Below, piece after piece: positions 8,164 through 21,236 of a DNA stretch of 64,000 bases; positions within the stretch are counted from its first letter, which is position 1; each line of letters starts with the position of its first letter. The DNA comes from a virus. Lineage: Duplodnaviria; Heunggongvirae; Uroviricota; Caudoviricetes. The notes under the pieces are model-generated. The model was not told where the DNA came from, made no database searches, and saw only the letters and a program-made list of their open reading frames with translations. The DNA lies in the IMG/VR virus record IMGVR_UViG_3300025162_001855. One strand, written 5' to 3'. Position numbers and translations under genes: made by a program.

Positions 8164-8224
8164 ATGTATTATTTAGCCTGGACAGCTCAAAAGTGTGCTC
8201 TACCACTGAGCTATAGGCCAATAA

Positions 8225-8881
8225 TCAAAATATCTGTGTAAACTCTGTCGGGGTGATAAGTCCCAAGTTTGTCTTGCGATCCTTACGCATCTCTCCAAAC
8301 TCAAAGAATGGATTGGTATGCGGAATAGTCCCATCACTTGGCATTCCATATGCCAAGATACCCACGCCATGGTCGGTATCAACTGTGACAATCTTCTTGT
8401 TGAGCAATGTGCGGAGATAGTAAATTGCCTTCCAGCAACTACCGTTGAGCGCACCAATTGCCTCCTTACCACCCTCGTTATAGAACCAATCCATGTCGTC
8501 ATTGGCCATAATCCAATCGGGCGGATTACAATCATGGAACACAATAAATCCATTATCGGACAAATGTGCCATCGAGTTGGCTGCATCCTTAAGTGTTTGG
8601 CCGGCTGTATGTAGTCCATCAATGAACACAACATCCCATTTATGGTCCACGGGAAAGCGAGTTTGGCCTTGCTCAAGGATCTTAAAGAATTCATCGGATG
8701 TCAGTTGGAATTCAACTGGATTACTCGGATTCAACAATCCCGGATCGACACCAACCTTGTGTGCCGCTGCAATATTATCAAAGCATTCGCGGGGATCATC
8801 AACACCAATCTCCAGATACTTACAACCCTGTGGAAAGTATTTTGAAATTAGGTAATTGAGAATGTTAATCCGGTTCATCAT
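8225..8881 (-). CDS. class I SAM-dependent methyltransferase (TylF/MycF-like)
   Basis: YLEIGV motif I-like and VVFIDGLH block in the translation. Confidence 0.5.
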   Translation of the reverse strand: MMNRINILNYLISKYFPQGCKYLEIGVDDPRECFDNIAAAHKVGVDPGLLNPSNPVEFQLTSDEFFKILEQGQTRFPVDHKWDVVFIDGLHTAGQTLKDAANSMAHLSDNGFIVFHDCNPPDWIMANDDMDWFYNEGGKEAIGALNGSCWKAIYYLRTLLNKKIVTVDTDHGVGILAYGMPSDGTIPHTNPFFEFGEMRKDRKTNLGLITPTEFTQIF

Positions 8882-8920
8882 AACAGAGTATCCTTGTAGT
8901 TCAGTATTTACCGTAAAAAG

Positions 8921-8996
8921 TGGTACCCCGTGTCAGACTCGAACTGACATAATTCTGCGTGTAAAGCAGATGCTTGAACCTCTCAGCTACCGGGGC
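8921..8996 (-). tRNA. tRNA-Val(TAC)
   Basis: Anticodon arm TCTGC-TTTACAC-GCAGA, T-arm GTCAG-TTCGAGT-CTGAC, A73 and encoded CCA. Confidence 0.55.
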
Positions 8997-9001
8997 AAAT
9001 T

Positions 9002-9076
9002 TGGCAGACCCTACGGGTATCGATCCCGTTACTCTACCTTGAAAGGGTAGTGATATAGCCAGTTATCTAAGGGTCC
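9002..9076 (-). tRNA. tRNA-Glu(TTC)
   Basis: Acceptor GGACCCT/AGGGTCT, anticodon arm CTACC-CTTTCAA-GGTAG, atypical T-loop ATCGATA, G73 and encoded CCA. Confidence 0.55.
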
Positions 9077-9085
9077 AAAACCGTT

Positions 9086-9168
9086 TGGTGCTGGCAGTAA
9101 GACTCGAACTTACGTAGGTTTCCCGACGGCTTACAAAACCGTTGCAATTGCCACTATGCGATGCCAGC
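9086..9168 (-). tRNA. tRNA-Thr(TGT), 83 nt with an extended variable region
   Basis: Acceptor GCTGGCA/TGCCAGC, anticodon arm ACGGT-TTTGTAA-GCCGT, T-arm GTAAG-TTCGAGT-CTTAC, encoded CCA. Confidence 0.45.
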
Positions 9169-9280
9169 GTTGATCTATTTATACTGTATGGTGGTGACGG
9201 CTGGATTCGAACCAGCGGGTTGCAACCTTATGAGGGTTGTGTGATGGGCCTCTCTGCCAAGTGGGCATTGAAAAACTTAA

Positions 9281-9532
9281 TTATCTATTTGGATCGTATT
9301 CAATAGAATTTAGAACAGGACCAAATGTTATCTGTGCTGTTGTGGCTTTAGATTTTCCACTTTGCTTTAGTAGCATCAGCACTTCTTTAATACACCATAC
9401 TAGATCTTCATGTCTGCTTTTAAATACAAACACAATCGTGCCGCTCTTTGTTTCAACAATAGAACCGATAGTTTCGGCTGCGGAAGTATTTTGTGATTTG
9501 CTTGATCGTAAGCGTCGTAATAATTCAGACAT
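9281..9532 (-). CDS. small hypothetical protein
   Basis: ORF track; start moved to the internal Met because the annotated 5' end overlaps tRNA-Met. Confidence 0.3.
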   Translation of the reverse strand: MSELLRRLRSSKSQNTSAAETIGSIVETKSGTIVFVFKSRHEDLVWCIKEVLMLLKQSGKSKATTAQITFGPVLNSIEYDPNR

Positions 9533-9566
9533 TGTATAAATCCCTAATTGTCTACTATTTATACCT

Positions 9567-9644
9567 TGGTGGCTGAGGTGAGGATCGAACTCACGCCATT
9601 CTACTTTATGAAAGTAGCGCACATACCTTCTATGCTACTCAGCC
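9567..9644 (-). tRNA. tRNA-Met(CAT)
   Basis: Acceptor GGCTGAG/CTCAGCC, anticodon arm CTACT-TTCATAA-AGTAG, T-arm GTGAG-TTCGATC-CTCAC, A73 and encoded CCA. Confidence 0.6.
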
Positions 9645-9780
9645 GAAATGAATTTGAACAGGGTTGGAGTCGAACCAACATTAGTTAGCCGTACATCAAC
9701 ACGATGACACAGCGGTTTTGGATACAGTTGATGCTGCCCGTAACCCCCGGCTTTGCCATTTTGCCTACCTGAACAAAACT

Positions 9781-9855
9781 TGGTGGGTCCGGAGAATTTC
9801 GAAATCTCGACTTGCCGCTTAAGAGGCGGCTACTCTGCCTCTGAGTTACGAACCC
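9781..9855 (-). tRNA. tRNA-Lys(CTT)
   Basis: Acceptor GGGTTCG/CGGACCC, anticodon arm GCCGC-CTCTTAA-GCGGC, encoded CCA. Confidence 0.55.
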
Positions 9856-10486
9856 AATTAATCTTATCACTATTAAATTTGTCTTGAAGATTATATTTTT
9901 CAACCACAGCCTTCAATCGACTGTATCCAGCTCCCCGAGTCTGCAATTTCAATAACCGTAATGCTCCCGATATTGATGTTGCCTGAAGTAGTGCATCGTA
10001 GTATCGTTGTTCGGTAATTTCTTTTTGCTTTTGTCGTTTATCTCGTTTTGGACGGATTCTACGTGCGCATCTGCCCACTAGCCAACCTTGTGGTTGTTCT
10101 CCGCATTTAAACTTTCCTGCCTTACTAGACACCGGATCATAATACCATGGCTTGCCAAAACTTCCATTTTTGTCACCAACCCGCTGTTTGGCTACTAGTT
10201 GATGCTTCTTCCTGATCCAACCATATATTTTGTTGTTCGATCGCTGTCCATTGTGCAACCCGATCATCTGTATAGCAGCCCAAACTAATCCGTTATGTTT
10301 AGGATACATTTTCATCAATAGCTGATGAGCAACATAGTGCTCTTCGGCAGTTAAGTTTACTAAGTTTTCTGGCAAATCTGTCCCACCGAGGCAACGTGGA
10401 ACAATATGGTGCCGTTCGATATAACCAGTTATCTTTCTACCTTTAGCCCGAGCTATTAGTAGTTCATAGTGTTGTGTATAGTTCAT
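9830..10486 (-). CDS. HNH homing-type endonuclease
   Basis: HNH block HHIVPRCLGGTDLPENLVNLTAEEHYVAH; 3' end overlaps tRNA-Lys(CTT). Confidence 0.6.
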   Translation of the reverse strand: MNYTQHYELLIARAKGRKITGYIERHHIVPRCLGGTDLPENLVNLTAEEHYVAHQLLMKMYPKHNGLVWAAIQMIGLHNGQRSNNKIYGWIRKKHQLVAKQRVGDKNGSFGKPWYYDPVSSKAGKFKCGEQPQGWLVGRCARRIRPKRDKRQKQKEITEQRYYDALLQATSISGALRLLKLQTRGAGYSRLKAVVEKYNLQDKFNSDKINWVRNSEAE

Positions 10487-10529
10487 AACTATATTTATCC
10501 GCGAACACTATATTCTTAGATTAAGAAGT

Positions 10530-10603
10530 TGGCACCCCGGGAGAGATTCGAACTCCCATTAACGGTTTTGGAGACCGTAGTCCTGCCATTGAACGACCGG
10601 GGT
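10530..10603 (-). tRNA. tRNA-Trp(CCA)
   Basis: Acceptor ACCCCGG/CCGGGGT, anticodon arm ACGGT-CTCCAAA-ACCGT, T-loop TTCGAAT, G73 and encoded CCA. Confidence 0.65.
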
Positions 10604-10609
10604 ATAAAA

Positions 10610-11581
10610 CTATTTGGCTTTACGAGATGGGAACTGGTTGAACAGTTTGCCATACTTGGAACGATTAAGTATCATCTGTGAGTTCCAAACTTGCTGTTCA
10701 CCATCATTTGTGGTCACTGTAATAGTGGACTTGGCCCACGGGTCACCACTCATTGTTGCCTTAGTAACAGGCTTACCAATCTTCTCGACCATCTTGTGAA
10801 CCCAAGCCATATATGCATCATGTGAATCTTGCTTGGCGTTGTCAATGTACCGCTTACGGAGCTCTGGGCTTTCCTTGCGGTGTGCATCCTTGCCGTCGGC
10901 CGATACTGTAATGCTTTGAAAAAACGAACGCTTGTGTTCCTTTCTGCGATAATCTTCGGTGCGGTCCGTGCTCTTTGCTCTTGGGGCAATAACATCTAGA
11001 TCCCATCCAGCAGCAGACATCATACCCATCCAGGTCTTGAACTGGCTTTTTGACAATTCTTCGGCACGCGCAACATATTCGTCAATGTGCTTTGTGAGTA
11101 CGTTGACTAATGTTGATGCATCGGAAAACTTCTTGGCAGTTGCTGTTGCCGCAACGGCCTTGGCCTGGGCTCTCTTAACCGAAGTCTTAACAACCTTGTC
11201 CTTTAAGGATTCGGTAATGTCCAGGTACGGCTTGAGTTGCTGATATGCATCGATGAACGCCTTGATCACCGGACTGTCCTTGGCCGCAACCTTCTTGAGC
11301 TTATTCGGTAGGCTCTTAAATGCCTGCGTACCAAAACCCAGAGCCCATACAAAATCTTGTACGTCTTGTGGGAGGTCCTTGTACTTGCCGGCGTAAGTAT
11401 ATTCGGCAAGAATGCTCTCGCGTACTGCATCACATAAACGCGATACTAAACTCTTCCATTCTGCAAACTTTGGGAGAATAATCTCACCAGCTGCCTCGGC
11501 ATCCTTCATGTCATTATACATGGCTTGGGTACGCTCTAAATAGCGTTGGGCTTCGGGTTTAAGTAGATCTGTGATGTTCAT
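10610..11581 (-). CDS. hypothetical protein (324 aa after start correction)
   Basis: ORF track; the annotated N-terminus overlaps tRNA-Arg(TCG), so the start is moved to MNITDLL at 11581. Confidence 0.45.
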   Translation of the reverse strand: MNITDLLKPEAQRYLERTQAMYNDMKDAEAAGEIILPKFAEWKSLVSRLCDAVRESILAEYTYAGKYKDLPQDVQDFVWALGFGTQAFKSLPNKLKKVAAKDSPVIKAFIDAYQQLKPYLDITESLKDKVVKTSVKRAQAKAVAATATAKKFSDASTLVNVLTKHIDEYVARAEELSKSQFKTWMGMMSAAGWDLDVIAPRAKSTDRTEDYRRKEHKRSFFQSITVSADGKDAHRKESPELRKRYIDNAKQDSHDAYMAWVHKMVEKIGKPVTKATMSGDPWAKSTITVTTNDGEQQVWNSQMILNRSKYGKLFNQFPSRKAK

Positions 11582-11620
11582 AGTATAGTATTTATACGCC
11601 CTGCTATTACAGATGTCAAT

Positions 11621-11697
11621 TGGCGCCCTCGGAGAGACTCGAACTCCCGACTTCTTCGTTCGAAGCGAAGCACTCTGATCCACTGAGTTACGAGGGC
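11621..11697 (-). tRNA. tRNA-Arg(TCG)
   Basis: Acceptor GCCCTCG/CGAGGGC, anticodon arm CTTCG-CTTCGAA-CGAAG, T-loop TTCGAGT, G73 and encoded CCA. Confidence 0.65.
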
Positions 11698-11769
11698 AAA
11701 AACTCTCGGGGTGCTGTATTCACCCCTTCCCGCAATAGACAATGATACAGTATCTATTGCGGAGTACTC

Positions 11770-11846
11770 TGGCGCGCCCGGAGAGATTCGAACTCCCAAC
11801 CCCAAGCTTCGTAGGCTTGTGCTCTATCCAGTTGAGCTACGGGCGC
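11770..11846 (-). tRNA. tRNA-Arg(ACG)
   Basis: Acceptor GCGCCCG/CGGGCGC, anticodon arm CAAGC-CTACGAA-GCTTG, T-loop TTCGAAT, G73 and encoded CCA. Confidence 0.65.
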
Positions 11847-11858
11847 AAAACTAAAATC

Positions 11859-11933
11859 TGGTGGGCCCACTAGGATTTGAACCTAGACTCGACGGTTTAT
11901 GAAACCGCTGCTTTGACCCTTAAGCTATAGGCC
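11859..11933 (-). tRNA. tRNA-Met(CAT), second CAT isoacceptor
   Basis: Acceptor GGGCCTA/TGGGCCC, anticodon arm GCGGT-TTCATAA-ACCGT, T-loop TTCAAAT, A73 and encoded CCA. Confidence 0.6.
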
Positions 11934-12548
11934 CGAAAATGTTCCTTTGCGAATCGCGTAAATATCTTGTTCGCGTATTATACGAAGTTTTCCAGGAAAA
12001 TGCAACCACTTGGCGCGATCTCTGTCGGTTTCATATCCCTTCACTTCAACGTACAGGTCCATAGATTCAATATAAAAATCTGGAAAGTATGTTCTGGTAC
12101 CATTCCATTCATATTCGAATCCGGTAGTTGCCCGATGTGGTTGTAATCCAACATTCTGGGCCCATCTATAAAATTCTAATTCCCACTTGCCCTGAAACTT
12201 TATACCATCTTCGATGATTTGTTTCGTTCTACCTCTATTAGAAGAAGTATACGCATCTGGATTGTTAGCAACCGCCAACTTCATCGATTCTGATGTTTTC
12301 TTTCTACTCTCCGCAGAACGTGCAAGTGTACCATTTTTTATTTTGGTAGCTAGTATCTTCTGTGTTGTTTCTTTTGCAACGACAGGCTTTGTCAATCCAT
12401 CGCGTGCCGCTTTTGTAAACTGGTTTGCACCTTTCTTACCGAGCATACCGTTTCGGTAGACTCTATTCTGGTTTTTGGGACAGCATCGTTCATGATTCTT
12501 GAGAGAATTTACGTTCTTACATAACCGATCACAGTATACACATTCCAT
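11925..12548 (-). CDS. C2HC zinc-finger plus PD-(D/E)xK homing-type endonuclease (paralog 2 of 3)
   Basis: N-terminal CVYCDRLCKNVNSLKNHERCC; C-terminal FPDFYIESMDLYVEVKG (D...EVK); 3' end overlaps tRNA-Met. Confidence 0.55.
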   Translation of the reverse strand: MECVYCDRLCKNVNSLKNHERCCPKNQNRVYRNGMLGKKGANQFTKAARDGLTKPVVAKETTQKILATKIKNGTLARSAESRKKTSESMKLAVANNPDAYTSSNRGRTKQIIEDGIKFQGKWELEFYRWAQNVGLQPHRATTGFEYEWNGTRTYFPDFYIESMDLYVEVKGYETDRDRAKWLHFPGKLRIIREQDIYAIRKGTFSGL

Positions 12549-12586
12549 ACTGTATTTAGCACAGAGTTCCCTGCTCTACCATAATC

Positions 12587-13372
12587 TCATTTAGGCTCAA
12601 ACTTCTTGAAGCAATCCAAAAATTCTTGTGGTAGCAGTCCCGGCGGTGTATCGATAAAGGTCATATCGTCCCTACCATACAAATCCCCGCCCGATGCCAT
12701 TGTTGATTTGATGTGCTCAATGTTTGTGAACTCGGGCTTATTGAACTCCTGATCGGCAAAGTTAAAAATCTTGTTTTGAACTTGCTCGGGTGTCCCCCAA
12801 TAACTTAGATGCCACCCACCTTGGTGTATGCACATGAAATCGAATCGATTAATCCTAAACCAACTTGGACCCATCTCCTTGAATCGACCAACTGTGGTCA
12901 ATACCGGGCCATGCCAAATGGTTGTCATTGCTCTTTTGAGATTGAAGTAAAACAAAATCTGACCAAGCAGGATGTTCTTGTATCCAACAACTAGTTCTTT
13001 AGCGAACTGTTGATTGAATTTAGTCCTATCCGGAATCTCATCGACATCACTAATCATAATGTATGCGTCATCGGGTGCAACATGAAGCACTGTTGCAATT
13101 TGATCGCGTTGAGCATTGGCAAGGTCCGCTGGGAATGATGCCTTGGTAGCATCGAACTTTGATAGGTCAACCACATATGGAATATAGATAATCTTGTTTA
13201 GGTATTTGCCAAACCGATCCCAATGTTGAGGCAGGTTAAATGGTTTCTTCTTACCACTGTGCGTTGTATCAGCTTCGACAATAATGAAATAGTCAACATG
13301 CTCGGCCAAATATTCTAAACGCCCCTCCAATAGGTCATATTCATCAAAAAAGATAAAGCTATCAATAATCAC
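12587..13372 (-). CDS. GT17-like glycosyltransferase (paralog 1)
   Basis: N-terminal MIIDSFIFFDEYDLLEGRLEYL and a WHLSYWG block; paralogous to 13369-14172 and 57416-58213. Confidence 0.55.
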   Translation of the reverse strand: MIIDSFIFFDEYDLLEGRLEYLAEHVDYFIIVEADTTHSGKKKPFNLPQHWDRFGKYLNKIIYIPYVVDLSKFDATKASFPADLANAQRDQIATVLHVAPDDAYIMISDVDEIPDRTKFNQQFAKELVVGYKNILLGQILFYFNLKRAMTTIWHGPVLTTVGRFKEMGPSWFRINRFDFMCIHQGGWHLSYWGTPEQVQNKIFNFADQEFNKPEFTNIEHIKSTMASGGDLYGRDDMTFIDTPPGLLPQEFLDCFKKFEPK

Positions 13373-14172
13373 AGTGTCACCTCAAATTTACCAAAGCATT
13401 CTAAAAAATCTTTGGGTAGAGTAGTAGCATCCACGCGGACGAATTTCAAGTCTCGTCCATATAAATCTTTGCCTTCGGATACAACCTGTTTGATGTAATC
13501 GATATCGGTGTATCGGGCATTGTTATATTCTTGATGGGCCGAATTAATTATCTTGGCTTGGATGAATGCCGGATCCCCCCAATAGCTTAGGTGCCAACCC
13601 GAATCCAACACCCCGCGTAATTTAAACCTGTTATCACGAAACCATTGTGCGCCATTGGACTGTACATATTTGTTGAATGTTATTACAGTGCCGCGCCATT
13701 GATCAAGCTCCTTATGCTGGAGATTGAAATAGAACATGTCTTGAAAAGATACCACAGCCCCAACATCGGGCGTCAAGTGCTTCTTGGTAATGTCAATTAA
13801 ATTGCGAGATGGAATCTCGTCTAAGTCCGAGATAACAACTAGTGCATCATCGGGATAATCCTTTAGAGCTTCCGTGATTGCACCACGTTGGTCATTTTCA
13901 AAGCGCCAGTATCCACTACTGTAATCAAACTCTGTCAATTTCTTATCGAAGTCATACTTGGTTCGATCTGGAGTAAATTTAACGTATTGTATCTTATCAC
14001 TGTATGCAACAAGGCGTTCTTGATTTTCTAAATAGTTAAACGGTTTTGTCTTACCACTGAAGGTAAGGTTGGATTCGACAATGACAAACTTGTCAATCCT
14101 ATCATACAAATATTGCAATCTGCCTTCTAGGATATCTAGTTCATTGGCAAACATAAAGCAATCAATGATCAT
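13369..14172 (-). CDS. GT17-like glycosyltransferase (paralog 2, tandem)
   Basis: N-terminal MIIDCFMFANELDILEGRLQYL and a WHLSYWG block; overlaps its upstream paralog in an ATGA start/stop arrangement. Confidence 0.55.
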   Translation of the reverse strand: MIIDCFMFANELDILEGRLQYLYDRIDKFVIVESNLTFSGKTKPFNYLENQERLVAYSDKIQYVKFTPDRTKYDFDKKLTEFDYSSGYWRFENDQRGAITEALKDYPDDALVVISDLDEIPSRNLIDITKKHLTPDVGAVVSFQDMFYFNLQHKELDQWRGTVITFNKYVQSNGAQWFRDNRFKLRGVLDSGWHLSYWGDPAFIQAKIINSAHQEYNNARYTDIDYIKQVVSEGKDLYGRDLKFVRVDATTLPKDFLECFGKFEVTL

Positions 14173-14225
14173 GCGCAGTCCTTGTAAACTATTAGTTATC
14201 GTCGCTTTACAGCATTACCGATAAT

Positions 14226-14302
14226 TGGCGCCCCCGGAGAGACTCGAACTCCCGACCTGACGGGTAGAAACCGTATGCTCTAATCCACTGAGCTACGAGG
14301 GC
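14226..14302 (-). tRNA. tRNA-Arg(TCT)
   Basis: Acceptor GCCCTCG/CGGGGGC, anticodon arm TACGG-TTTCTAC-CCGTC, T-loop TTCGAGT, G73 and encoded CCA. Confidence 0.6.
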
Positions 14303-14307
14303 AAGAT

Positions 14308-14382
14308 TGGGGTGACTAGAGGGAATCGAACCCTCATTGAAGGAATCACAATCCTTGATCCTACCATTGAACGATAGCCACC
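14308..14382 (-). tRNA. tRNA-His(GTG) with an encoded G-1
   Basis: Extra 5' G pairing with C73, acceptor GTGGCTA/TAGTCAC, anticodon arm AAGGA-TTGTGAT-TCCTT, T-loop TTCGATT, encoded CCA. Confidence 0.6.
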
Positions 14383-14468
14383 ATCGAAATAAACAGGATC
14401 GTTTCCACTCCCGAAGAAGTGTCTTTGGGTTTGAACCAACATCTATTTATACAAAAATGATTCTAGAG

Positions 14469-14541: not shown

Positions 14542-14551
14542 ATTTATAAAA

Positions 14552-14628: not shown

Positions 14629-14633
14629 AAAGT

Positions 14634-14778: not shown

Positions 14779-15237
14779 CTAATTCTTTTTCAGAGCTTCC
14801 GAAATTTTCCGTTTGTGTTCTTTGGATTTCGGTTTACCCTTGTTACCTGCTGCATTCGTGTTGCCCACCATCTTACGTGAATTCATACGACATGCTGCGT
14901 CATAACCATGTTTGGCTACCATATGGTACCATGCACCCTTATGGACCCCACTCTCTACTGCATCGATACCGATATTCTCTTTGTCGGTACCCCAATACAA
15001 GTGGCGTGGATTAGAACACTTTGCGTTATGACAGGCATGGCACAATATAATTCTACCGGATGGTATTGTTGTATTGAGATACTGAGCCAACACACCTTTA
15101 TGGTTTGTAGAGTTACCACCACGCTCACAACAGGTTTCATCTAATGCCAAATGACTACGTCGTTCTTCACGACTTCGTTTAATAAATTCAAGTATGTTTT
15201 CCATACTTCTATTTATACAAGTAAACACACTAGACAC
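14779..15237 (-). CDS. HNH endonuclease
   Basis: HNH-like block CHACHNAKCSNPRHLYWGTDKEN in the translation. Confidence 0.5.
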   Translation of the reverse strand: MSSVFTCINRSMENILEFIKRSREERRSHLALDETCCERGGNSTNHKGVLAQYLNTTIPSGRIILCHACHNAKCSNPRHLYWGTDKENIGIDAVESGVHKGAWYHMVAKHGYDAACRMNSRKMVGNTNAAGNKGKPKSKEHKRKISEALKKN

Positions 15238-15258
15238 AATTATCTAGTGTGTTTAAGT

Positions 15259-15336
15259 TGGTACGGAAGAAGGGATTCGAACCCATACTGTAGAGATTTT
15301 AAGTCTCTTGTCTCCTGCCAATTGGACTACTTCCGC
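15259..15336 (-). tRNA. tRNA with anticodon TAA (a Leu anticodon) in a class-I body
   Basis: Acceptor GCGGAAG/CTTCCGT, anticodon arm AGAGA-CTTAAAA-TCTCT (perfect stem), 5-nt variable loop ACAGT, T-loop TTCGAAT, A73 and encoded CCA. Confidence 0.5.
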
Positions 15337-15520
15337 GCAAATCAATTATAGCTTGGCCTTGGCCGAGTCAGTTTGCTTCTTGACCCAGTTAAACACGGCA
15401 GGTACTAGAACAGTAACTACTGCACCGGCTACAAATCCAAAGAAAAAATCGACTGTTAATCCGAACATAATAAACTCCTTGATAGGGATAAATTCCTATC
15501 ATATGTATTTATCACAAAAT

Positions 15521-15597
15521 TGGTCGGGATTGAAGGACTCAAACCTTCGACCTTCTGCGCCCAAGGCAGACGCTCTATCAAGCTGAGCTAAACCCCG
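15521..15597 (-). tRNA. tRNA-Pro(TGG)
   Basis: Acceptor CGGGGTT/AATCCCG, anticodon arm TCTGC-CTTGGGC-GCAGA, T-arm GAAGG-TTTGAGT-CCTTC, encoded CCA. Confidence 0.6.
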
Positions 15598-15668
15598 ATA
15601 TAAACCTTTTAAAAGATTCGGGGCGCATTGCACGCCCCAAACGTTTCTTCTTCTTTTTTACTTATGAC

Positions 15669-16229
15669 TTAGAAAGTGTACTTGTAAAATACACCTTCTC
15701 TATGGTTAGCAGCCGATGTGCCGCTGTATACATAGAACGCTGCACCAACTGCATGGTGCTTATTAACGTCTAATGTCAAACCGATCTTCTCACGGTTTTC
15801 GTGGGTATTTGCCCCATTGAACGCATGACGGAAGCGGTATTCTGCATCAACACTTAATGGGCCGTATACAGGCTTGTTAACCTTTACACCCGCACCATAC
15901 AAGCCTTGATCCTCTATGCCGGTCTTCAATACATCAACAACTTGGACAAATGGTGTTACACCATATCCTTGTACCTTGAACTTGTAACCAACTCCGGCAG
16001 CAAACAATTCAGACACTGGACCATCGCCCTTGGTCTGGGTTGTTTCAGCTTCACCAATGAGCTTGAAATTACCAATTGTATTGGTTGCTTCAACCTTGTA
16101 TTGATTGGTGTTATACTGGATGCTGTACGCCACTCGGCAGCAATATCACCTGCCATTGCACTTGCGCAAACTAAAGTTGCCGAAACAGCAATCAAACCTA
16201 GAATAACCTTCTTCATAATGTCTCCTTGA
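15669..16229 (-). pseudogene. Lom/Ail/OmpX-like outer-membrane beta-barrel gene with a frameshift
   Basis: Signal-peptide ORF (MKKVILGLIAVSATLVCASAMAG, about 16229-16140) and a beta-barrel ORF (15669-16133, ending ...GVFYKYTF) are in different frames overlapping near 16130, with a stop in the barrel frame just upstream. Confidence 0.4.
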
Positions 16230-16315
16230 TATAATAAACCACCCTGTTGGGGTGGCTCAGTATTTACCGGGAGACTACGTGGTATCCGTATTTTGCGGTG
16301 CAAATGCCCTAAATT

Positions 16316-16409
16316 TGGCGGAAAGGGTGGGATTCGAACCCACGGAGCCCGGTTTAAAGGCTCGCTCAGTTAGCAACCGAGTGCTTTAGGCCAGCTCAGC
16401 CACCTTTCC
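16316..16409 (-). tRNA. tRNA-Ser(GCT), class II
   Basis: Acceptor GGAAAGG/CCTTTCC, anticodon arm CTCGG-TTGCTAA-CTGAG, about 21-nt variable arm, T-arm GTGGG-TTCGAAT-CCCAC, encoded CCA. Confidence 0.6.
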
Positions 16410-16423
16410 ATATTCTACCGGTT

Positions 16424-16519
16424 CGATAAATTGGTCCTCGCCCACGGGAATGATCCGTGCCGTTGCAGCCAGTCCAGCCACTCTCGCAGGTTTATAAAAC
16501 CTACCCGCACACCAGTGCT
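16424..16519 (-). other. atypical tRNA-like element (about 96 nt)
   Basis: 7-bp terminal stem CCTCGTC/GGCGAGG followed by ACCA, T-arm-like CACGG-ATCATTC-CCGTG and hairpin TAGGT-TTTATAA-ACCTG, but a roughly 27-nt extra insert; not a canonical cloverleaf. Confidence 0.25.
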
Positions 16520-16527
16520 GACGAGGA

Positions 16528-16719
16528 TTAATCTTTCTTGTTGAGCAAGTCTGCTAGGTCCATCACCTTCTCTTTTTCAATAAGGTCAATGATGAAATTA
16601 GTCAGTTCGACTTCTTTTGAGATGAAGAATAATTTTATTCTCAGCTCTTCCAACTTCTTTTGGTAGAACTTTAGTTCTTTTTCTTTTTCTTCTCGGAGTT
16701 TGTAAACATCCGAAAGCAT
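16528..16719 (-). CDS. small coiled-coil protein
   Basis: ORF track; start at internal Met (MLSDVYKLREEKEKELKFYQKKLEEL...). Confidence 0.3.
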   Translation of the reverse strand: MLSDVYKLREEKEKELKFYQKKLEELRIKLFFISKEVELTNFIIDLIEKEKVMDLADLLNKKD

Positions 16720-16896
16720 GATTAGTTTGCCCACACAGTATTTAGCGAGCAAGCACCGGCCTTGAACCGGAAAGGGTACCACGCCCTCGAAGAAGCCAAA
16801 TCTTCTCGGTACTAGTTTTGAATACGCCTCCCAATGTGGTACGAGAATTGTAAACTACTCCGTTCCCTATCTTCTACCTGCAAGTTTGGTTGAGGG

Positions 16897-16972
16897 ACTA
16901 GGAATCGAACCTAGAGTCTTCCGATCCAAAGTCGGAGGTTTTGCCAATTAAACTATCCCTCAATAATAAGTG
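16897..16972 (-). tRNA. tRNA-Gln(TTG)
   Basis: U1:A72 acceptor TGAGGGA/TCCCTCA, anticodon arm TCCGA-CTTTGGA-TCGGA, T-arm CTAGG-TTCGATT-CCTAG, encoded CCA. Confidence 0.65.
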
Positions 16973-17167
16973 TTGATTAGTCGGCGGAAGTCTCTAATCT
17001 AGCCACATTGGGCATAACATATGACCTCAGTGCAACAATATGTCTGCTACCTTGCGGTCGACTAATCAACTGTACCGGAACCTTTGGTTATTCCTTCTCC
17101 GGGAAGGAACCAACTTGCGTTGGATGGTTGATAAGACTCTCGCCGGCTTTTGTCTTGTCTATTAGTT

Positions 17168-17242
17168 TGGTGGGACTGCAGGGATTCGAACCCTGGACCA
17201 ATCGGTTAAAAGCCGATTGCTCTACCGCTGAGCTACAATCCC
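17168..17242 (-). tRNA. tRNA-Lys(TTT)
   Basis: Acceptor GGGATTG/CAGTCCC, anticodon arm ATCGG-CTTTTAA-CCGAT, T-arm CAGGG-TTCGAAT-CCCTG, encoded CCA. Confidence 0.65.
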
Positions 17243-17733
17243 AAAATTGATCGACGGGCGCAGCACGCCCAAGGCACTTTCAACAGCAGCCTTTCCATCT
17301 GTGAGCTTACGCTCGATCACTGAGCCGAAATTTAAATGGTAGCGGGGGGACGATTTGCACATCCGAACCTTTTCAGGACTGGATTATGAGCCCAGTTTCG
17401 TTGACTACTTGAATACCCCGCAACAAACATTTCTATGTGGCCGGTGGGGTATCTTGGTACTCTGTACCATGCCCATCCTCCGTTTACTTTCCTTACCACA
17501 TAAAATCAAAACTAGACGACCTTTTGCCGCTGGGATAAAACCAGCACCACTTATCGGGAAGGCGGCCGAACCTTATTTGGTGGAGTATGTCGGCATCGAA
17601 CCGACCTGCATATTCTCGGTGCAAGCGAGACGTCCACTCCAAGCAGACCCATACCCCAAATTTAGTAGGATTCTCTCACCCTTGTCAAGTCTGATTCGCC
17701 CGACTTTCTCTAGCCATCTTTTCAATGGCAATT

Positions 17734-17809
17734 TGGTGGAGGTGACAAGGATCGAACTTGCGACATTTTGGTTGCAAACCAAACGCTCTACCAACTGAGC
17801 TACACCCCC
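17734..17809 (-). tRNA. tRNA-Ala(TGC)
   Basis: Acceptor GGGGGTG/CACCTCC with the G3:U70 pair, anticodon arm TTTGG-TTTGCAA-CCAAA, T-loop TTCGATC, encoded CCA. Confidence 0.65.
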
Positions 17810-17816
17810 AATAAAC

Positions 17817-18011
17817 TTACTTAGCTGCCTTGATCTGTTCGCCAAAAGTCTTTGTGACGTTGGCACCAAATGCAAGCAAGCTCTTTGTATACGCAGCCTG
17901 TGCTTCCGCGAGCTTTACTAGTTCACGACGTGTTTCAACGTGTGGAACATGATCCGCAAAACTCTTGAACGAAGCCAAACCATCATCTACCATTGTGTCG
18001 AAATTAAACAT
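17817..18011 (-). CDS. small hypothetical protein
   Basis: ORF track only. Confidence 0.3.
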   Translation of the reverse strand: MFNFDTMVDDGLASFKSFADHVPHVETRRELVKLAEAQAAYTKSLLAFGANVTKTFGEQIKAAK

Positions 18012-18065
18012 TGTAGTGTCTCCTGTACTGACATAGTATTTATGTCTGCTCGCTGCACTGCAACA

Positions 18066-18656
18066 TTATTCTCTGTTAGAGTAAAATCTCTCTACTATCG
18101 GATTTATTCTCTGTTTAATCTTTAGAGATGGTATGAGCAACTTATTCTCCGTGAACGTCGTGGTAGTTACTAATACTAAAGTGTCATCTTCATCAGAGTA
18201 ATAATTCTGATACGCATCTTTAGCATCACGCGATACGATCTCACCAGTTGATGTATCCATGACTGCCAAATTGAATGCTTTTGACAACGTAGACCATAGT
18301 TTCTTACCATCTAGTGTTTGTCTATGACCACTCATTAGATTTACATGTTCATTGTGTGAAATCGAATGATACATTCGAATCCCCAACTCTTGTCCTCGAT
18401 ACCTAGGTGCGACCTGAACACCATTAGTTTGAAAATACGTTGTACTATGTATTTTGGTTGGAGTGCATAATGTACCAGCTATAACCTTGTCGTTATCTAA
18501 TAGGTAGTAAACAAACGAGTTTACTCCAAATCTATTTTTCTTCATCGGGTAACCGTTGATTTCGTGATTAAACCCAAAATCAACTTCATCATCGCGAGGT
18601 ACCCTGGATAACTCCAGTCCGCCTTCGTGGGCGATTGTAATCTCTTTAATTTGCAT
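18066..18656 (-). CDS. hypothetical protein (196 aa)
   Basis: ORF track; no recognisable motif. Confidence 0.4.
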   Translation of the reverse strand: MQIKEITIAHEGGLELSRVPRDDEVDFGFNHEINGYPMKKNRFGVNSFVYYLLDNDKVIAGTLCTPTKIHSTTYFQTNGVQVAPRYRGQELGIRMYHSISHNEHVNLMSGHRQTLDGKKLWSTLSKAFNLAVMDTSTGEIVSRDAKDAYQNYYSDEDDTLVLVTTTTFTENKLLIPSLKIKQRINPIVERFYSNRE

Positions 18657-18688
18657 AACAGTATTTATTGTCCTACTTGTTACACGGT

Positions 18689-19000
18689 CTAATTATGCTT
18701 TATGTACTCTTTCTTCATGTACGAATCTAAAGCATCAACAATCTTCTTTACTCTATCGAGCTGGTTAGGACCAGTTCGATGCAATGTATTCTGGTGTAGA
18801 TTCTGCAACTCTAGTACGAGTTGATCCTCTGTGATATCTTGGTTTCTGATTTGCTCTAGCACAACCTTGTATTTGGTTGCGCACTCTGCAACACCAGCCG
18901 CATACGGAAAGCCGCTTGCGCAAGCACCTTTGTTCTCCAACGCTTCAATCAACATTTCGACATGTGGTTGAAGATCATCATACTTGAAAGCCATACACAC
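18689..19000 (-). CDS. hypothetical protein (103 aa)
   Basis: ORF track only. Confidence 0.35.
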   Translation of the reverse strand: MCMAFKYDDLQPHVEMLIEALENKGACASGFPYAAGVAECATKYKVVLEQIRNQDITEDQLVLELQNLHQNTLHRTGPNQLDRVKKIVDALDSYMKKEYIKHN

Positions 19001-19103
19001 CTCGTTACCATTACAAAGTCAGAATTGAAACCCCCCATCACGGCTACCACACCTTACGATGTCCTGTGACCGCACTACAGGTTACATGGCGTGCTTCAAA
19101 ATT

Positions 19104-19179
19104 TGGTGCCGCCCCCCGGGATCGAACCGGGCACACTACGCTCTTCAGGCGTATGCTCTACCAACTGAGCTAGAGCGGC
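19104..19179 (-). tRNA. tRNA-Phe(GAA)
   Basis: Acceptor GCCGCTC/GGGCGGC, D-arm GCTC-AGTTGGTA-GAGC, anticodon arm TACGC-CTGAAGA-GCGTA, T-loop TTCGATC, encoded CCA. Confidence 0.65.
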
Positions 19180-19377
19180 ATAATAAGATGCTGATGGTGT
19201 TTACCTACGTTTCAGTCCCCGAGTTAAACACAACCCTCGGACTTACTCTGCTAGGAAGTAGGGCGGGTCTTAACCGCACATCAGCATTGTTTGGCGACCG
19301 ACAGGGGTAACGATCCCCTCTGAATATCTTGCGTGACAGGCAAGCGACCACTCCATGCAGTCCCGTCGGCCATAAAT

Positions 19378-19466
19378 TGGCTGGTGGAGTTGGATTCGAA
19401 CCAACGATGAGGAATTAACCTGACAGATTAACAGTCTGTTCTCTGCTACCACTCGAGTACCCACCA
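19378..19466 (-). tRNA. tRNA with anticodon GTT (Asn) in a Tyr-like class-II body, 89 nt
   Basis: Acceptor TGGTGGG/TCCACCA, anticodon arm ACAGA-CTGTTAA-TCTGT, 17-nt variable arm with AGG/CCT hairpin, T-loop TTCGAAT, G73 and encoded CCA; body resembles E. coli tRNA-Tyr except GTA changed to GTT. Confidence 0.5.
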
Positions 19467-19470
19467 AAAA

Positions 19471-20100
19471 CTACTCGTGAATGAATTGTTTCGCTATACC
19501 AATATAAGTCTTGGTATCTTTAAACATTTTCTTCCACTCTATTCTTAACACTTTCCAACCGGCTTCGGCTAGAACTTGGTCTTTTCTTTTATCGCGCGCC
19601 TTAACTTCGTCAAAGCGTTGATGCTGCTCGCCATCAATCTCTATGGCCAATTTTTTATCAGGCCACGCAAAGTCAATTGCATAAATGCCAACAGGATATT
19701 CCCTGCTGTAATTCTTATCTTCAAATTCGTTTTCGATAACTTGTATGAAGAATTTTTCTGGCCAGGATGGCTCGTTATTCCAACGACTTTTTCCTATGTT
19801 CCACGCAGTACCGTTATCGTGCCGGGCTTTCATCTTAGCAGCAAGTTTTGCTTTTGTTTCGAGAGTATGCCGTCGCTTAGATGATCTAGCTGATAACTTT
19901 TGTCGTGTCTCCTTCGATATTACCGGAGGAGGTAAACCCAACTTTTTCGCCTTTATGAATTGATTTGAATTTGATACTTTGTCTCGGTTGTTTTTCATCC
20001 ATGTAACTTGTTTATTGGGGTTGTTATTGCACAACCGCTCATGATTTAACAAGCTATTTTGGCTCTTACACATTCGATCACAAAACTTACAATTGGACAT
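19471..20100 (-). CDS. C2HC zinc-finger plus Vsr/DUF559-like homing-type endonuclease (paralog 3 of 3)
   Basis: N-terminal CKFCDRMCKSQNSLLNHERLC; C-terminal IDFAWPDKKLAIEIDGEQH...RDKRKDQVLAEAGWKVLRI. Confidence 0.6.
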   Translation of the reverse strand: MSNCKFCDRMCKSQNSLLNHERLCNNNPNKQVTWMKNNRDKVSNSNQFIKAKKLGLPPPVISKETRQKLSARSSKRRHTLETKAKLAAKMKARHDNGTAWNIGKSRWNNEPSWPEKFFIQVIENEFEDKNYSREYPVGIYAIDFAWPDKKLAIEIDGEQHQRFDEVKARDKRKDQVLAEAGWKVLRIEWKKMFKDTKTYIGIAKQFIHE

Positions 20101-21236
20101 TTGGTAGTGCTCCTGTCTATGTATTTAGCTGCTCTACCGCTGAGCTACTTACCAATAAACTCTAATAACGGTGCCACCCAGTCCGCCGTTTGCAGACCAT
20201 ATTCCGTTATTCTGACTGTGCCCTTTCTTTCGTCTACAGAGTTTTGTTAATGCACAGTCCCCAAACTCAATCTACCAAATGGATTATCGCCCTCTTCTGA
20301 CGGCCCGAGTTTACGGACTGGACGCAAGGCTTCAAAAGCCCCGACTTACACCACAAGAAAAAGTGACTGCGTCCCCACCTTATATATTTACGCAATCTAG
20401 TTGCACGCCGATAGAAAGTGTAGACGGTATGTTCAATGTCTGTGCAACCGCCACCGTAGTACACTAGGGATATATCGGAGCCCCCTCTCGGCGTATTTTC
20501 AACGCTGGTCCACGGCGCCGTTGATCAGGCGACGACGGTTAGCTATTTTTATGTGATAGTTTACCGACCAAATTCAAAATATAATACAAGGCCACCATCC
20601 TGTATTGTGATCGTACTCCTTAATATTGGTTGCTGCAACTCACCTCAGTACGATCACCAGTTGCCACGCCAGGGGTCTGGCTTGACTGAGCCCCCTCTCG
20701 GTAGAGACGCTATCCTCTCTACTAGACTTCCAAAAGTATTAGTGGGCCGACCATCCACCAATTGATGTTGTGTCCTATCGTTTGTACCAGGGCCTTGCTT
20801 ATAGATATGTGGTGTAATGCCACATGACTCACAACCTCCCGCCCACGCATACAGAGCATGTATCGTATAGCCCAACTACGGTTGACGATCATCAACAAGG
20901 ACTTAGTTTAACACCAAGCAACACCTTGCGGTATTCTTCACGCCTTTATAGTGGGCCTCTTGTCCCCACGCACATCGCCGATTCTCACGGCCGGCTCCTT
21001 TGTTCCATCTCAGGGCATACAAGTATGCGGGATGGAGGTTTGCTTCACTGAATTTGACGAACAAGGACTCGAACCTTGTATTAACCCCTTTGGAATCGAA
21101 CCGTTCGGTGCCGCCGCGCCGCCTCACCAGAGGAATCGTCAAAATTTGAATGTCCCAACGGTTTTGAACCGTCTACCGGGCCACAAGGACCCTGCTGTGA
21201 CCAACACCGAGCGTGGCCTACGCCCCGGGACAAAAT

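Follow-up and report, generated by a model that had tools for sequence, protein, structure and literature searches.

Among homing enzymes, I-Ssp6803I has a PD-(D/E)XK fold, belongs to a group I intron, and has its site in the anticodon-loop region of a tRNA gene, cyanobacterial tRNA-fMet; I-Bth0305I is encoded by an intron within a protein-coding gene. In the T4 intron ORFs (I-TevI and similar), the start region is masked by a hairpin enclosing a late promoter, and I-TevI is autorepressed through an operator overlapping its own late promoter. Other mobile endonuclease ORFs supply a substitute for part of their target gene, the displaced piece becoming a pseudogene (e.g., the Allomyces mitochondrial atp6 element), and integrating elements with a tRNA 3' end of their own repair the tRNA gene into which they insert. 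T4 SegB is a homing endonuclease encoded in a tRNA cluster; according to excerpts from two published accounts, its recognition sequence is a T-arm motif of tRNA genes, the tRNA genes beside it are inherited together with it, and microhomology exists between a tRNA 5' end and the 3' end of the nuclease gene (PMC2330249; PMC13096335).

The window analysed here, a stretch of phage DNA 64,000 nt in length, resembles the SegB setting in having free-standing nuclease genes within the tRNA cluster of a large T4-like phage. Three of these (nucleases 1-3) lie between a tRNA-like fragment (F1-F3) and a complete tRNA gene:

8220-8187, minus strand: F1, tRNA 5' fragment, TGGCCTA-TA-GCTC-AGTGGTA-GAGC-A-CACTT-TTGA
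8177-8170, minus strand: GCTAAATA, 6 nt upstream of the nuclease 1 ATG
7507..8163, minus strand: nuclease 1, 218 aa, C2HC zinc finger and PD-(D/E)XK domain
7477..7552, minus strand: tRNA-Ile(GAU), 40.3 bits, non-canonical D arm, 9-bp acceptor helix
12581-12564, minus strand: F2, tRNA piece, TGGTAGAGCA-GGGAA-CTC
12560-12553, minus strand: GCTAAATA, 4 nt upstream of the nuclease 2 ATG
11925..12548, minus strand: nuclease 2, 207 aa, its TAG stop forming positions 8-10 of the next tRNA
11859..11934, minus strand: tRNA(CAU), D arm GCTT-AAGGGTCA-AAGC, 10-nt overlap with the nuclease 2 ORF
20154-20129, minus strand: F3, tRNA 5' fragment, TGGTAAG-TA-GCTC-AGCGGTA-GAGC-A-G
20129-20122, minus strand: GCTAAATA, 21 nt upstream of the nuclease 3 ATG, with AGGAG between
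19471..20100, minus strand: nuclease 3, 209 aa, C2HC zinc finger and DUF559/Vsr-like PD-(D/E)XK domain
19378..19466, minus strand: tRNA-Asn(GUU), 49.5 bits, odd D arm, 18-nt variable region

We consider it probable that the fragments are the remains of tRNA genes invaded by free-standing homing endonuclease genes that carried a replacement tRNA. A preliminary description of this DNA had reported tRNA acceptor plus D-arm fragments without T arms directly 5' of minus-strand start codons at 8163, 12548, and 20100. The strings it quoted and the ORF starts are indeed there, as are both motifs it called shared, GGTAGAGCA in F1-F3 and GCTAAATA after each; as it implied, no tRNA is intact at the F1, F2, or F3 position, neither ARAGORN nor Rfam calling one. 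The T arm and the 3' half are absent from all three fragments. Its anatomy fits F1 (acceptor strand, D arm, 5' strand of the anticodon stem, and loop up to ..TTGA) and F3 (acceptor strand TGGTAAG, complete D arm, A26, and G27, fused directly to the GCTAAATA element), but not F2, which lacks the acceptor strand and the 5' D-stem strand and comprises the D-loop and 3' D-stem strand, A26, the anticodon-stem strand GGGAA, and the loop CTC. The glycosyltransferase ORF upstream of F2 terminates at 12587.

In local alignments against tRNA 5' halves, F3 scores 20 and F1 19, far over control windows (9.6 +/- 1.5, 95th percentile 11.8), so that these two are clearly tRNA-derived; F2, at 12-13, is borderline when judged on its own. 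The motif GGTAGAGCA occurs six times where 0.36 would be expected, three times within true tRNAs and three times as the F1-F3 copies. It represents simply the D arm of the disrupted tRNAs, the stretch that varies least in any D arm of a class-I tRNA. The window fragments can be assigned to tRNA species only weakly: F1 is compatible with any GAN anticodon, for example Ile(GAU); F2 fits a tRNA with a CAU or CCA anticodon, the CAU case implying a break after C34; and F3 holds no anticodon information.

The window also contains a fourth case (6443-5679), overlooked in the preliminary description, with the same architecture of 5' fragment, promoter-like element, ORF, and overlapping tRNA, and a relic of similar composition:

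6421..6443, minus strand: tRNA-Leu 5' fragment, GCGATTG-TG-GCGG-AATTGGTAGA
6406-6399, minus strand: CATAAATA, between the tRNA-Leu fragment and the ATG at 6393
5728..6393, minus strand: 221-aa Cys-rich ORF, of a family other than that of nucleases 1-3, with an HNH-like motif by eye; the PHROGs it matches have no known function
5679-5763, minus strand: tRNA-Leu(GAG), overlapped 36 nt by the 221-aa ORF
1486..1533, minus strand: relic, a tRNA-Ser(UGA) 5' fragment ending ..CTTGA, CATAAATA following it and no ORF; tRNA-Ser(GGA) lies 47 nt further on

Further tRNA-like pieces lie away from nucleases 1-3, at 9272-9190, 21020-21140, 1533-1498, and 361-480.

The preliminary description had also likened GCTAAATA to the T4 late promoter, and this likeness holds up. 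The element occurs nine times against 1.9 expected, all nine on the minus strand, and many ORFs of the window are preceded at 4-25 nt by an element of this type; it appears to behave like a strand-biased T4-type late promoter variant just upstream of ORF starts, and would presumably be used as a promoter. The further proposal, that the cassettes carried a common leader, is not supported. The paralogs are only 25-29% identical, GGTAGAGCA is a D arm, and NNTAAATA is found before many unrelated ORFs of the window; in the three leaders, the sequences between GGTAGAGCA and GCTAAATA are unrelated. The two motifs together are not a cassette-specific leader.

The leaders also bear on the possibility, unlikely in our estimate although compatible with a scar origin, that the fragment is kept for regulating the nuclease gene. 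As RNA, it would be the 5' strand of a hairpin that masks the ribosome-binding region on transcripts reading through from upstream, the late promoter being enclosed by the hairpin as in the T4 intron ORFs; as DNA, it might be a non-cleavable half-site by the promoter through which the nuclease represses itself like I-TevI, an analogy that for the window nucleases is pure conjecture. At one related locus (L030), perfect pairing joins the D-arm strand TGGTAGTGC to GCACTACCA, immediately 5' of the AUG, and leaves the promoter-like element in the loop (z -3.5), and strong hairpins of this type but other sequence occur at L032 (z -4.6), L020 (z -4.1), L015 (z -4.4), and L052 (z -3.7). In the window, the acceptor and D-stem strands of F3 are able to pair with AGGAGCACUACCAA, and CUCUGUGCU of F2 with the AUG-containing AGUAUGGA; the D arm of F3 directly abuts the promoter-like element. 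However, the window sequences fold no better than shuffles (z +0.2 for F3, -1.6 for F1, -2.0 for F2), the F1 hairpin leaves the start region untouched, the sequestering hairpin in most related loci contains no tRNA-derived sequence, and the gap that separates D arm and promoter-like element ranges from 0 to 25 nt. A TATAAATA-type element directly before the ORF and, in related loci, strong start-codon-sequestering hairpins around it are features in common with the T4 intron ORFs, whereas the window hairpins are weak and the element is GCTAAATA, only 4-6 nt from the AUG of nucleases 1 and 2.

All three nuclease genes run up to or into a complete tRNA at their 3' end, a feature that the preliminary description missed: the nuclease 1 ORF overlaps the next tRNA by 46 nt, and tRNA-Asn(GUU) begins 4 nt past the nuclease 3 stop. 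With this downstream tRNA in view, the tRNA gene looks not destroyed but exchanged for a copy linked to the nuclease, and we propose that tRNA-Ile(GAU) is such a linked replacement allele. The fragments' acceptor strands fail to pair with the 3' ends of the tRNAs that follow, so these tRNAs are not just an old 3' half joined to a new 5' half. The same mismatch weighs against reading each fragment as exon 1 of a tRNA gene split by a self-splicing group I intron with a nuclease ORF, as for I-Ssp6803I. This arrangement would account for fragments that end in or near the anticodon loop, the site of bacterial tRNA introns, and for a nuclease fold shared with I-Ssp6803I; but each downstream tRNA is whole on its own, a search of positions 1-24000 gave no group I intron match at E <= 1, and the non-coding sequence amounts to 4-35 nt from the fragment to the ORF and to 0 beyond it, leaving no room for a ribozyme core. 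We regard an intron as extremely improbable and already contradicted. The host tRNA of I-Ssp6803I is rescued by RNA splicing, whereas in the window, with no ribozyme, a second complete gene copy supplies the tRNA.

The nucleases themselves have hallmarks of homing endonucleases, a conclusion supported by several lines of comparison. All three carry a C-x2-C-x12-H-x3-C finger and a conserved D...(D/E)xK region; nuclease 3 matches DUF559 (E 2e-13), and a profile built from the three matches Bax1-type PD-(D/E)XK nucleases. The top PDB match of the nuclease 1 AlphaFold model is the catalytic domain of the phage-borne I-Bth0305I (3r3p_B; E 1.5e-3, probability 1.00, TM 0.58 on target), of the EDxHD (Vsr-like PD-(D/E)XK) group, although sequence similarity to I-Bth0305I is undetectable by HMMER against PDB. 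Unlike I-Bth0305I, the window proteins are free-standing, have an N-terminal C2HC finger, and lie in tRNA arrays.

The family to which they belong (3602 cluster representatives) is large and specialised in phage tRNA arrays, with separate clades tied to separate tRNA species. Almost all of its 51 viral loci lie within co-oriented tRNA arrays, and in about 25 of 38 distinct loci the next tRNA begins -42 to +7 nt from the ORF end. In a neighbour-joining analysis, clades follow the species of the adjacent tRNA, which is Pro, CAU, Asn, Leu-UAG, Ser-UGA, or Tyr on the downstream side and Lys-UUU on the upstream side. Nuclease-adjacent tRNAs have lower tRNA-model scores (median 49.9 vs 57 bits; one-sided Mann-Whitney p 0.003), and all five distinct nuclease-adjacent tRNA-Asn lack a canonical D arm, odd D arms occurring in non-adjacent tRNAs too.

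Fragment distribution across the family bears on a simpler account: that the fragments are ordinary pseudo-tRNAs decaying by duplication and deletion in a fast-evolving array, near nucleases only because both occupy gaps between tRNAs. The tRNA-like pieces away from the window nucleases, and the 3 of 150 random windows that score high, speak for this account. But tRNA 5' fragments lie upstream of 11 of 39 family members, against those 3 of 150 windows (p 2e-6) and 3 of 95 starts of other ORFs within these arrays (p 7e-5), a four- to ten-fold enrichment over the two kinds of control, and one of the three fragment-bearing control ORFs is itself the window's putative nuclease ORF of another family. 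The fragments do not vary in orientation or in position, lying just ahead of the promoter-like element, and they mostly end in the anticodon loop. Where informative, they are in most loci of the same species as the downstream tRNA, similarity stopping at positions 33-36: Asn in L008, L014, and L027 (GACT|TAGA), Ile in L015, Ser-UGA in L046, CAU in L044, and Leu-UAG in L035 and L032. F1 (..TTGA beside Ile-GAU) and F2 (..CTC beside CAU) obey this rule. The L022 fragment is CAU-type, yet its nuclease has no adjoining downstream tRNA and a tRNA-Met(CAU) lies 53 nt upstream; the family members at L053, L051, L047, and L018 have no fragment whatever, which counts against a homing origin. Ordinary decay seems to us quite improbable.

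If the fragments are instead scars of homing, as we favour, the process may be envisaged as follows. During co-infection, the enzyme would cut the ordinary allele of its own tRNA gene, in or near the anticodon loop, and repair would copy from the nuclease-bearing genome a unit of promoter-like element, nuclease ORF, and 3'-fused complete tRNA. The tRNA of the unit would be of the same species but diverged in its 5' half, mainly the D arm; it would presumably not be cut, and would be too different for recombination that removes the nuclease gene. The 5' part of the old tRNA would remain upstream as a dead fragment, and this fragment and the 3' part of the new tRNA could provide the homology that admits the unit to the same tRNA gene of arrays otherwise unrelated to one another. 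The phage's general late-promoter-like element, GCTAAATA, would give the nuclease its own late transcript, nearly leaderless for nucleases 1 and 2. The logic is shared with the Allomyces atp6 element and the tRNA integrators, in that an invader brings a replacement and a dead original piece stays alongside; those cases concern protein-coding 3' ends or integrase insertion, whereas here it is the 5' part of a tRNA and a phage homing endonuclease. SegB differs in fold, being a GIY-YIG enzyme rather than a zinc finger joined to PD-(D/E)XK. As far as the excerpts go, its target is a T-arm motif common to many tRNAs, whereas each clade of the family keeps to one tRNA species and the footprint here points to the region from D arm to anticodon loop; the excerpts note neither upstream 5' fragments nor a fused replacement tRNA for SegB (PMC2330249, PMC13096335).

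Comparison of related loci points to insertion or replacement, in agreement with the preliminary suggestion that homing endonucleases had inserted into tRNA genes; that description stands as to genuine 5' fragments next to homing-type nucleases, though not as to the common leader. No nuclease-free relative of the window phage was found that would offer an empty site for any of the three window loci. Among L008, L014, and L027, a block of similarity spans from the fragment to the downstream tRNA, with identities of 80-84% in the leader, 72-75% in the ORF, and up to 88% in the tRNA stretch, and flanks at background (56-62% vs 59 +/- 2.4%). Conservation of the fragment roughly equals that of the leader, and the fragment may derive from each recipient or travel with the unit. 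In L008, similarity to tRNA-Asn picks up again beyond a mutated loop, which would allow a break near position 46. In a coliphage pair, LF82-7 has one tRNA-Arg(UCU) at a site where Mizar has a tRNA-Asn, a family member, and a very different tRNA-Arg(UCU), and near-identity between the two restarts exactly at the tRNA borders.

Short tRNA-like pieces stand directly 5' of the minus-strand ORFs of all three nucleases of the window, nuclease 1 (7507-8163), nuclease 2 (11925-12548) and nuclease 3 (19471-20100). The preliminary description had placed tRNA 5' pieces upstream of the ORF starts at 8163, 12548 and 20100, and the strings that it quoted are present; F2 is weak when taken alone. The pieces are listed here together with one tRNA-Leu and one tRNA-Ser piece from the same strand.

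8220-8187, minus: F1, upstream of nuclease 1, TGGCCTA-TA-GCTC-AGTGGTA-GAGC-A-CACTT-TTGA, comprising acceptor strand, full D arm, anticodon-stem strand and half a loop
12581-12564, minus: F2, upstream of nuclease 2, a shorter piece, TGGTAGAGCA-GGGAA-CTC
20154-20129, minus: F3, upstream of nuclease 3, acceptor strand and full D arm, with G27 fused to GCTAAATA
6443-6421, minus: tRNA-Leu 5' piece, followed by CATAAATA and then by a 221-aa ORF (5728-6393), the same architecture with a different protein family
1533-1486, minus: tRNA-Ser(UGA) 5' piece with CATAAATA and without an ORF, 47 nt before tRNA-Ser(GGA)

Neither ARAGORN nor Rfam calls F1, F2 or F3 as a tRNA, and against a library of tRNA 5' halves F3 scores 20, F1 19 and F2 12-13, with control windows at 9.6 +/- 1.5. 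The glycosyltransferase ORF upstream of F2 stops six bases before it. Behind F1 comes an imperfect inverted copy of the fragment's opening 14 nt (TGAGCTGTCCAGGCTA; window 8189-8174, minus strand), and the two form a -24 kcal/mol hairpin ending inside GCTAAATA that may be due to chance (z -1.6).

At its 3' end each nuclease gene abuts or overlaps a complete tRNA, hereafter its partner: tRNA-Ile(GAU) at 7477-7552, a CAU tRNA at 11859-11934 and tRNA-Asn(GUU) at 19378-19466. The first 46 nt of the tRNA-Ile(GAU) are also the last 15 codons and the stop codon of nuclease 1. Two of these minus-strand tRNAs have further peculiarities, the tRNA-Ile(GAU) a 9-bp acceptor helix (GTGCTGGTG/CACCAGCAC) and an unusual D region, and the tRNA-Asn an 18-nt variable region (CAGGTTAATTCCTCATCG) that is unusual for tRNA-Asn. 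The 221-aa Cys-rich ORF repeats the arrangement, overlapping tRNA-Leu(GAG) by 36 nt, so that the whole architecture spans 6443-5679 on the minus strand; it matches PHROGs of no known function, and an HNH-like motif can be made out by eye.

The window, at 45.8% G+C, has 42 tRNA genes; they form a minus-strand array that extends from 900 to 22070. The gene content is that of large T4-related phages; elsewhere the window encodes a nicotinamide phosphoribosyltransferase, a NadR-like cytidylyltransferase/NUDIX protein and two RNA ligases. Also embedded in the array, on the minus strand, are a methyltransferase (8225-8881) and two tandem family-17 glycosyltransferase paralogues (12587-14172).

All three nucleases begin with a C-x2-C-x12-H-x3-C finger and share a D...(D/E)xK region, with an identity to one another of only 25-29%. 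Their PHROG matches are endonucleases and resolvases, and nuclease 3 additionally matches DUF559 (E 2e-13) and REase_MTES_1575. A profile of the three gave only weak HMMER matches in the PDB, to Bax1-type PD-(D/E)XK nucleases. An AlphaFold model of nuclease 1, built on an alignment of three sequences only, is confident in the finger and in residues 103-205 (domain pLDDT 70-90), and its best PDB match by Foldseek is 3r3p_B, the catalytic domain of I-Bth0305I (E 1.5e-3, probability 1.00, 95 columns). Together with the DUF559 match of nuclease 3, the model indicates a Vsr-like PD-(D/E)XK catalytic fold. In the region of the EDxHD signature nuclease 3 has IEIDGEQH, a reading made at the level of the alignment, without residue superposition; nucleases 1 and 2 show the classical D...(D/E)xK pattern (PDF...LDPK and PDF...VEVK). 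The family is large: a profile search of 1.84 billion cluster representatives recovered 3602 relatives at E <= 1e-3 and 1068 at E <= 1e-10, the former amounting to about 3600 clusters at 50% identity.

An ORF enclosed between a tRNA 5' part and a tRNA invites comparison with a tRNA interrupted by a group I intron, or with a split tRNA, in which the nuclease is the intron-encoded ORF (the I-Ssp6803I type). Window positions 1-24000 contain no Intron_gpI match at E <= 1, however, and the noncoding space at the nuclease loci, only 4-35 nt, leaves no room for a ribozyme. Nor are the two tRNA parts halves of one molecule, as the partner tRNAs are complete, and the acceptor strands of the fragments have no complement downstream and do not pair with the 3' ends of the partners. 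Because there is no ribozyme, no space and a complete tRNA downstream, the group I intron is excluded, and the nuclease ORFs lie outside any intron, as free-standing genes between fragment and tRNA.

The association with tRNA genes extends well beyond the window. A scan of viral contigs for the nuclease family yielded 51 loci, nearly all of them tRNA arrays co-oriented with the nuclease gene, and homologues also occur in the tRNA regions of T4-like Escherichia, Klebsiella, Acinetobacter and Providencia phages and of Rhizobium phages. In about 25 of 38 distinct loci the ORF ends between 42 nt inside and 7 nt before the next tRNA, the stop codon often being made from tRNA positions 8-10 or 13-15. 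Groups in a neighbor-joining tree of the proteins follow the species of the adjacent tRNA, with clades for downstream Pro(UGG), CAU, Asn, Leu(UAG), Ser(UGA) and Tyr, and one linked to upstream Lys(UUU); the window partners are tRNA-Ile(GAU), tRNA(CAU) and tRNA-Asn, and nuclease 2 falls in the CAU clade. Nuclease-adjacent tRNAs also score lower against the Rfam tRNA model (median 49.9 versus 57 bits; one-sided Mann-Whitney p 0.003), three of them falling below the 29-bit Rfam threshold. The divergence is visible in the D arm: the TAGCTCAGT.GGTAGAGCA arm, present in most other tRNA-Asn of phages, is missing from all five distinct adjacent tRNA-Asn, and in the window GGTAGAGCA is absent from all three partner tRNAs and present in the fragments.

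Fragments like F1-F3 recur upstream of the family more often than at control positions. With a score of at least 14 within 100 nt upstream as the criterion, a tRNA 5' fragment precedes 11 of 39 distinct family members, compared with three of 150 random non-tRNA windows of the same loci (p 2e-6) and three of 95 other ORF starts in the same arrays (p 7e-5); one of these last three is the Cys-rich ORF at 5728-6393. The best matches to complete tRNAs end at positions 33-36, and the identity of the broken tRNA tends to be that of the neighbor. In three fragments (L008, L014 and L027) the alignment with tRNA-Asn begins at position 1 or 8 and reaches U33, after which TAGA takes the place of GTTAA; others end CTGAT beside tRNA-Ile(GAU) (L015), CTTGA beside tRNA-Ser(UGA) (L046), TCTT beside tRNA-Leu(UAG) (L035 and L032) and CTC beside a CAU tRNA (L044). 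The fragment at L022 likewise ends in CTC; there the nuclease has no adjoining tRNA on its downstream side, and the tRNA-Met(CAU) is found 53 nt upstream. F1 (..TTGA, beside Ile-GAU) and F2 (..CTC, beside CAU) fit this rule of break point and species, their ends being compatible with other anticodons as well, and F3 breaks off earlier. It might be supposed that such pieces are pseudo-tRNAs in random decay; random decay, however, does not explain the pattern, leaving the enrichment, the orientation, the break point and the species match unaccounted for. A hairpin of D-arm and anticodon-stem sequence seen at L015 was set aside, being the tRNA-Ile fragment itself.

The three tRNA-Asn loci L008, L014 and L027 delimit the unit that is shared. 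Their identity is 80-84% in the leader, 72-75% in the ORF and up to 88% in the downstream tRNA-Asn stretch, the tRNA-Asn of L008 and L027 being identical over the 76 nt compared. Outside it, in the 150 nt preceding the fragment and the 200 nt following the tRNA, identity is 56-62%, against a background of 59 +/- 2.4%; tRNA sequence thus delimits the shared block at either end, within arrays that are unrelated elsewhere. Conservation of the fragment is about equal to that of the leader, and it may therefore come from each recipient or travel with the unit. That these loci present the same junction on three different recipient tRNA-Asn alleles is accordingly no more than a possibility, the fragments being no more divergent than the leader.

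Presence and absence of a family member can be compared in two coliphages that are 95%-identical relatives. LF82-7 has a tRNA-Met and then a single tRNA-Arg(UCU), whereas Mizar has a tRNA-Met, a tRNA-Asn, the family member and a quite different tRNA-Arg(UCU) overlapping the end of the ORF, and near-identity resumes exactly after this tRNA. For the three window loci, the comparison with nuclease-free relatives that had been proposed found none in viral, metagenome or phage records. No viral contig with the neighboring methyltransferase or glycosyltransferase was a nuclease-free relative; unchanged copies of the methyltransferase occur on contigs as long as the 270-kb ENA ERZ1426660, and all 24 contigs read with the identical gene have the same gene neighborhood as the window. 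Metagenome contigs yielded a single methyltransferase match (1.1 kb, 46% identity) and no nuclease-free relative, a search with the L014/L027 junction pattern matched only nuclease-bearing contigs, and megablast of 7000-21000 found no DNA-level match among phage records.

The preliminary description had further seen in GGTAGAGCA and GCTAAATA a common leader carried by the cassettes. That part does not hold: between the two motifs the leaders of nucleases 1-3 have nothing in common, the proteins themselves are distant, and both motifs are general ones. No part of class-I tRNA genes is more conserved than GGTAGAGCA, of which there are six copies (0.36 expected), three of them within genuine tRNAs. 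GCTAAATA occurs nine times, always on the coding strand, against 1.9 expected. With the T4 late promoter TATAAATA, to which a resemblance had been noted, it agrees at six of eight positions; the true TATAAATA is also present, with seven copies on the coding strand of the window. TAAATA has 38 copies on the coding strand and 12 on the other, and 25 of the 38 lie at most 45 nt from an ATG opening an ORF of at least 45 codons. Twelve copies of NNTAAATA stand only 4-7 nt before the ATG of real-looking ORFs, several of which are not nucleases (minus strand, at 60980, 47953, 41106, 33245, 18669, 15217, 12560, 11596, 10499, 8177, 6406 and 3514). From the coding-strand copies, the TAAATA bias and the position before non-nuclease ORFs it therefore appears that GCTAAATA is a genome-wide element resembling a T4 late-promoter variant, with putative promoter activity, and not a leader specific to the nucleases.

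The T4 late promoter TATAAATA is recognized by gp55, with transcription starting about 6 nt downstream, and requires the phage late sigma factor. At nucleases 1 and 2 the gap between GCTAAATA and the ATG is too short for a Shine-Dalgarno sequence, and an mRNA beginning at this element would have almost no leader. The placement of NNTAAATA 4-7 nt before the ATG of the twelve ORFs likewise has no space for a Shine-Dalgarno sequence and suggests either leaderless or near-leaderless late mRNAs or a motif within the translation start region. That the fragments act as intrinsic terminators or sigma-70 promoters was considered and dropped, neither being found at the fragment sites nor in excess in the region.

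Many relatives have long hairpins that contain TATAAATA and hide the AUG (z -3.7 to -4.6), resembling the translational control of intron ORFs in T4. Those listed here pair the leader with the first zinc-finger codons or with the start.

L032: 2950-3025
L020: 2950-3030
L015: 2925-3030
L052 (Mizar): 2445-2515

The element TGCTCTA(A)CC, which stands before TATAAATA in L001, L012, L020, L032 and Mizar, had looked like a reversed D arm (GGTAGAGCA) and hence like an orientation-independent protein site. The hairpins account for it: in L032 and L020, TGCTCTACC is the outer 5' strand of the long hairpin, pairing with the zinc-finger codons TGT-GGT-A(A/G)A and hiding the AUG, and its pairing partner in Mizar is the start-codon region itself, so that the likeness to a D arm is coincidental. 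Nor is the element a MotA box, its spacing to any -10 hexamer being unfit by inspection. It is possible that a fragment, in addition to originating as a scar, regulates its nuclease gene; at L030 the D-arm strand pairs perfectly with sequence before the AUG (z -3.5), whereas the analogous structures that F3 and F2 could form are statistically unremarkable.

The feature is best read as a set of homing-endonuclease scars, and intronless homing into tRNA genes is the simplest account of it; in this the core of the preliminary description is upheld, the common leader not being a property of the cassettes. Intronless homing is recognized by cleavage of the nuclease-free allele near the insertion point, resistance of the nuclease's own allele and preferential inheritance together with flanking sequence; on cleavage and resistance, the diverged D arms and the lower tRNA-model scores of the downstream tRNAs bear only indirectly. 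The anatomy and the statistics are direct observations on sequence, from which we infer cleavage, resistance and promoter use. The enzyme would cut an ordinary allele of its tRNA gene in the region from D arm to anticodon loop, and repair would copy in the promoter-like element, the ORF and the fused, diverged tRNA of the same species, the 5' part of the old tRNA remaining upstream. The diverged D arm would block both re-cutting and loss of the nuclease gene by direct-repeat recombination. Homology arms could then be provided by the fragment on one side and the new tRNA's 3' part on the other, making entry independent of the wider genomic context.

More tentatively, and stopping short of calling it probable, we propose a zinc-finger PD-(D/E)XK homing family whose lineages, each specific to one tRNA species, spread intron-free as a unit of old tRNA 5' piece, promoter, nuclease and resistant tRNA, homing to the anticodon-loop region in any phage tRNA array. 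If so, the family would be one of the main forces that spread tRNA genes from phage to phage and that give many phage tRNAs their odd D arms, and the oddity of those arms would reflect an arms race with nucleases acting on the gene, not on the RNA.

To our knowledge, homing endonucleases of phage tRNA clusters are represented by one studied case, SegB of T4, which is an established precedent. SegB is described as recognizing a T-arm motif of tRNA genes and dragging neighboring tRNA genes along (PMC2330249; PMC13096335). Unlike SegB, the nucleases of the window and the 51 loci belong to a different and much larger family whose gene is fused to a particular tRNA, and which often leaves a tRNA 5' half behind. 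Keyword searches of the literature found no account of a family that combines clades linked to tRNA species, fusion of the ORF to a tRNA that scores low, and 5' halves that break off in the anticodon loop. Should the mechanism hold, it would explain pseudo-tRNA fragments and non-canonical D arms in phage arrays, offer a selfish gene a splicing-free route into an essential RNA gene, and supply candidate nucleases with specificities of roughly 20 bp centered on tRNA genes. For annotation, tRNA-like half-matches beside small Cys-rich ORFs should be regarded as scars, not as split tRNAs.

The window holds other tRNA-like pieces. The tRNA-Ser(UGA) piece at 1533-1486 ends in CTTGA, exactly after the anticodon, and is probably a relic, like a site whose nuclease gene was lost. 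At 9272-9190 (minus strand) a tRNA(CAU)-like anticodon arm, T arm, acceptor 3' strand and CCA occur without a matching 5' strand and without a call by ARAGORN or Rfam; this may be the opposite leftover, a 3' part. Uncalled tRNA-like pieces are also seen on the minus strand at 21020-21140, with two T-arm-like repeats, and at 361-480, with a D arm and a T arm.
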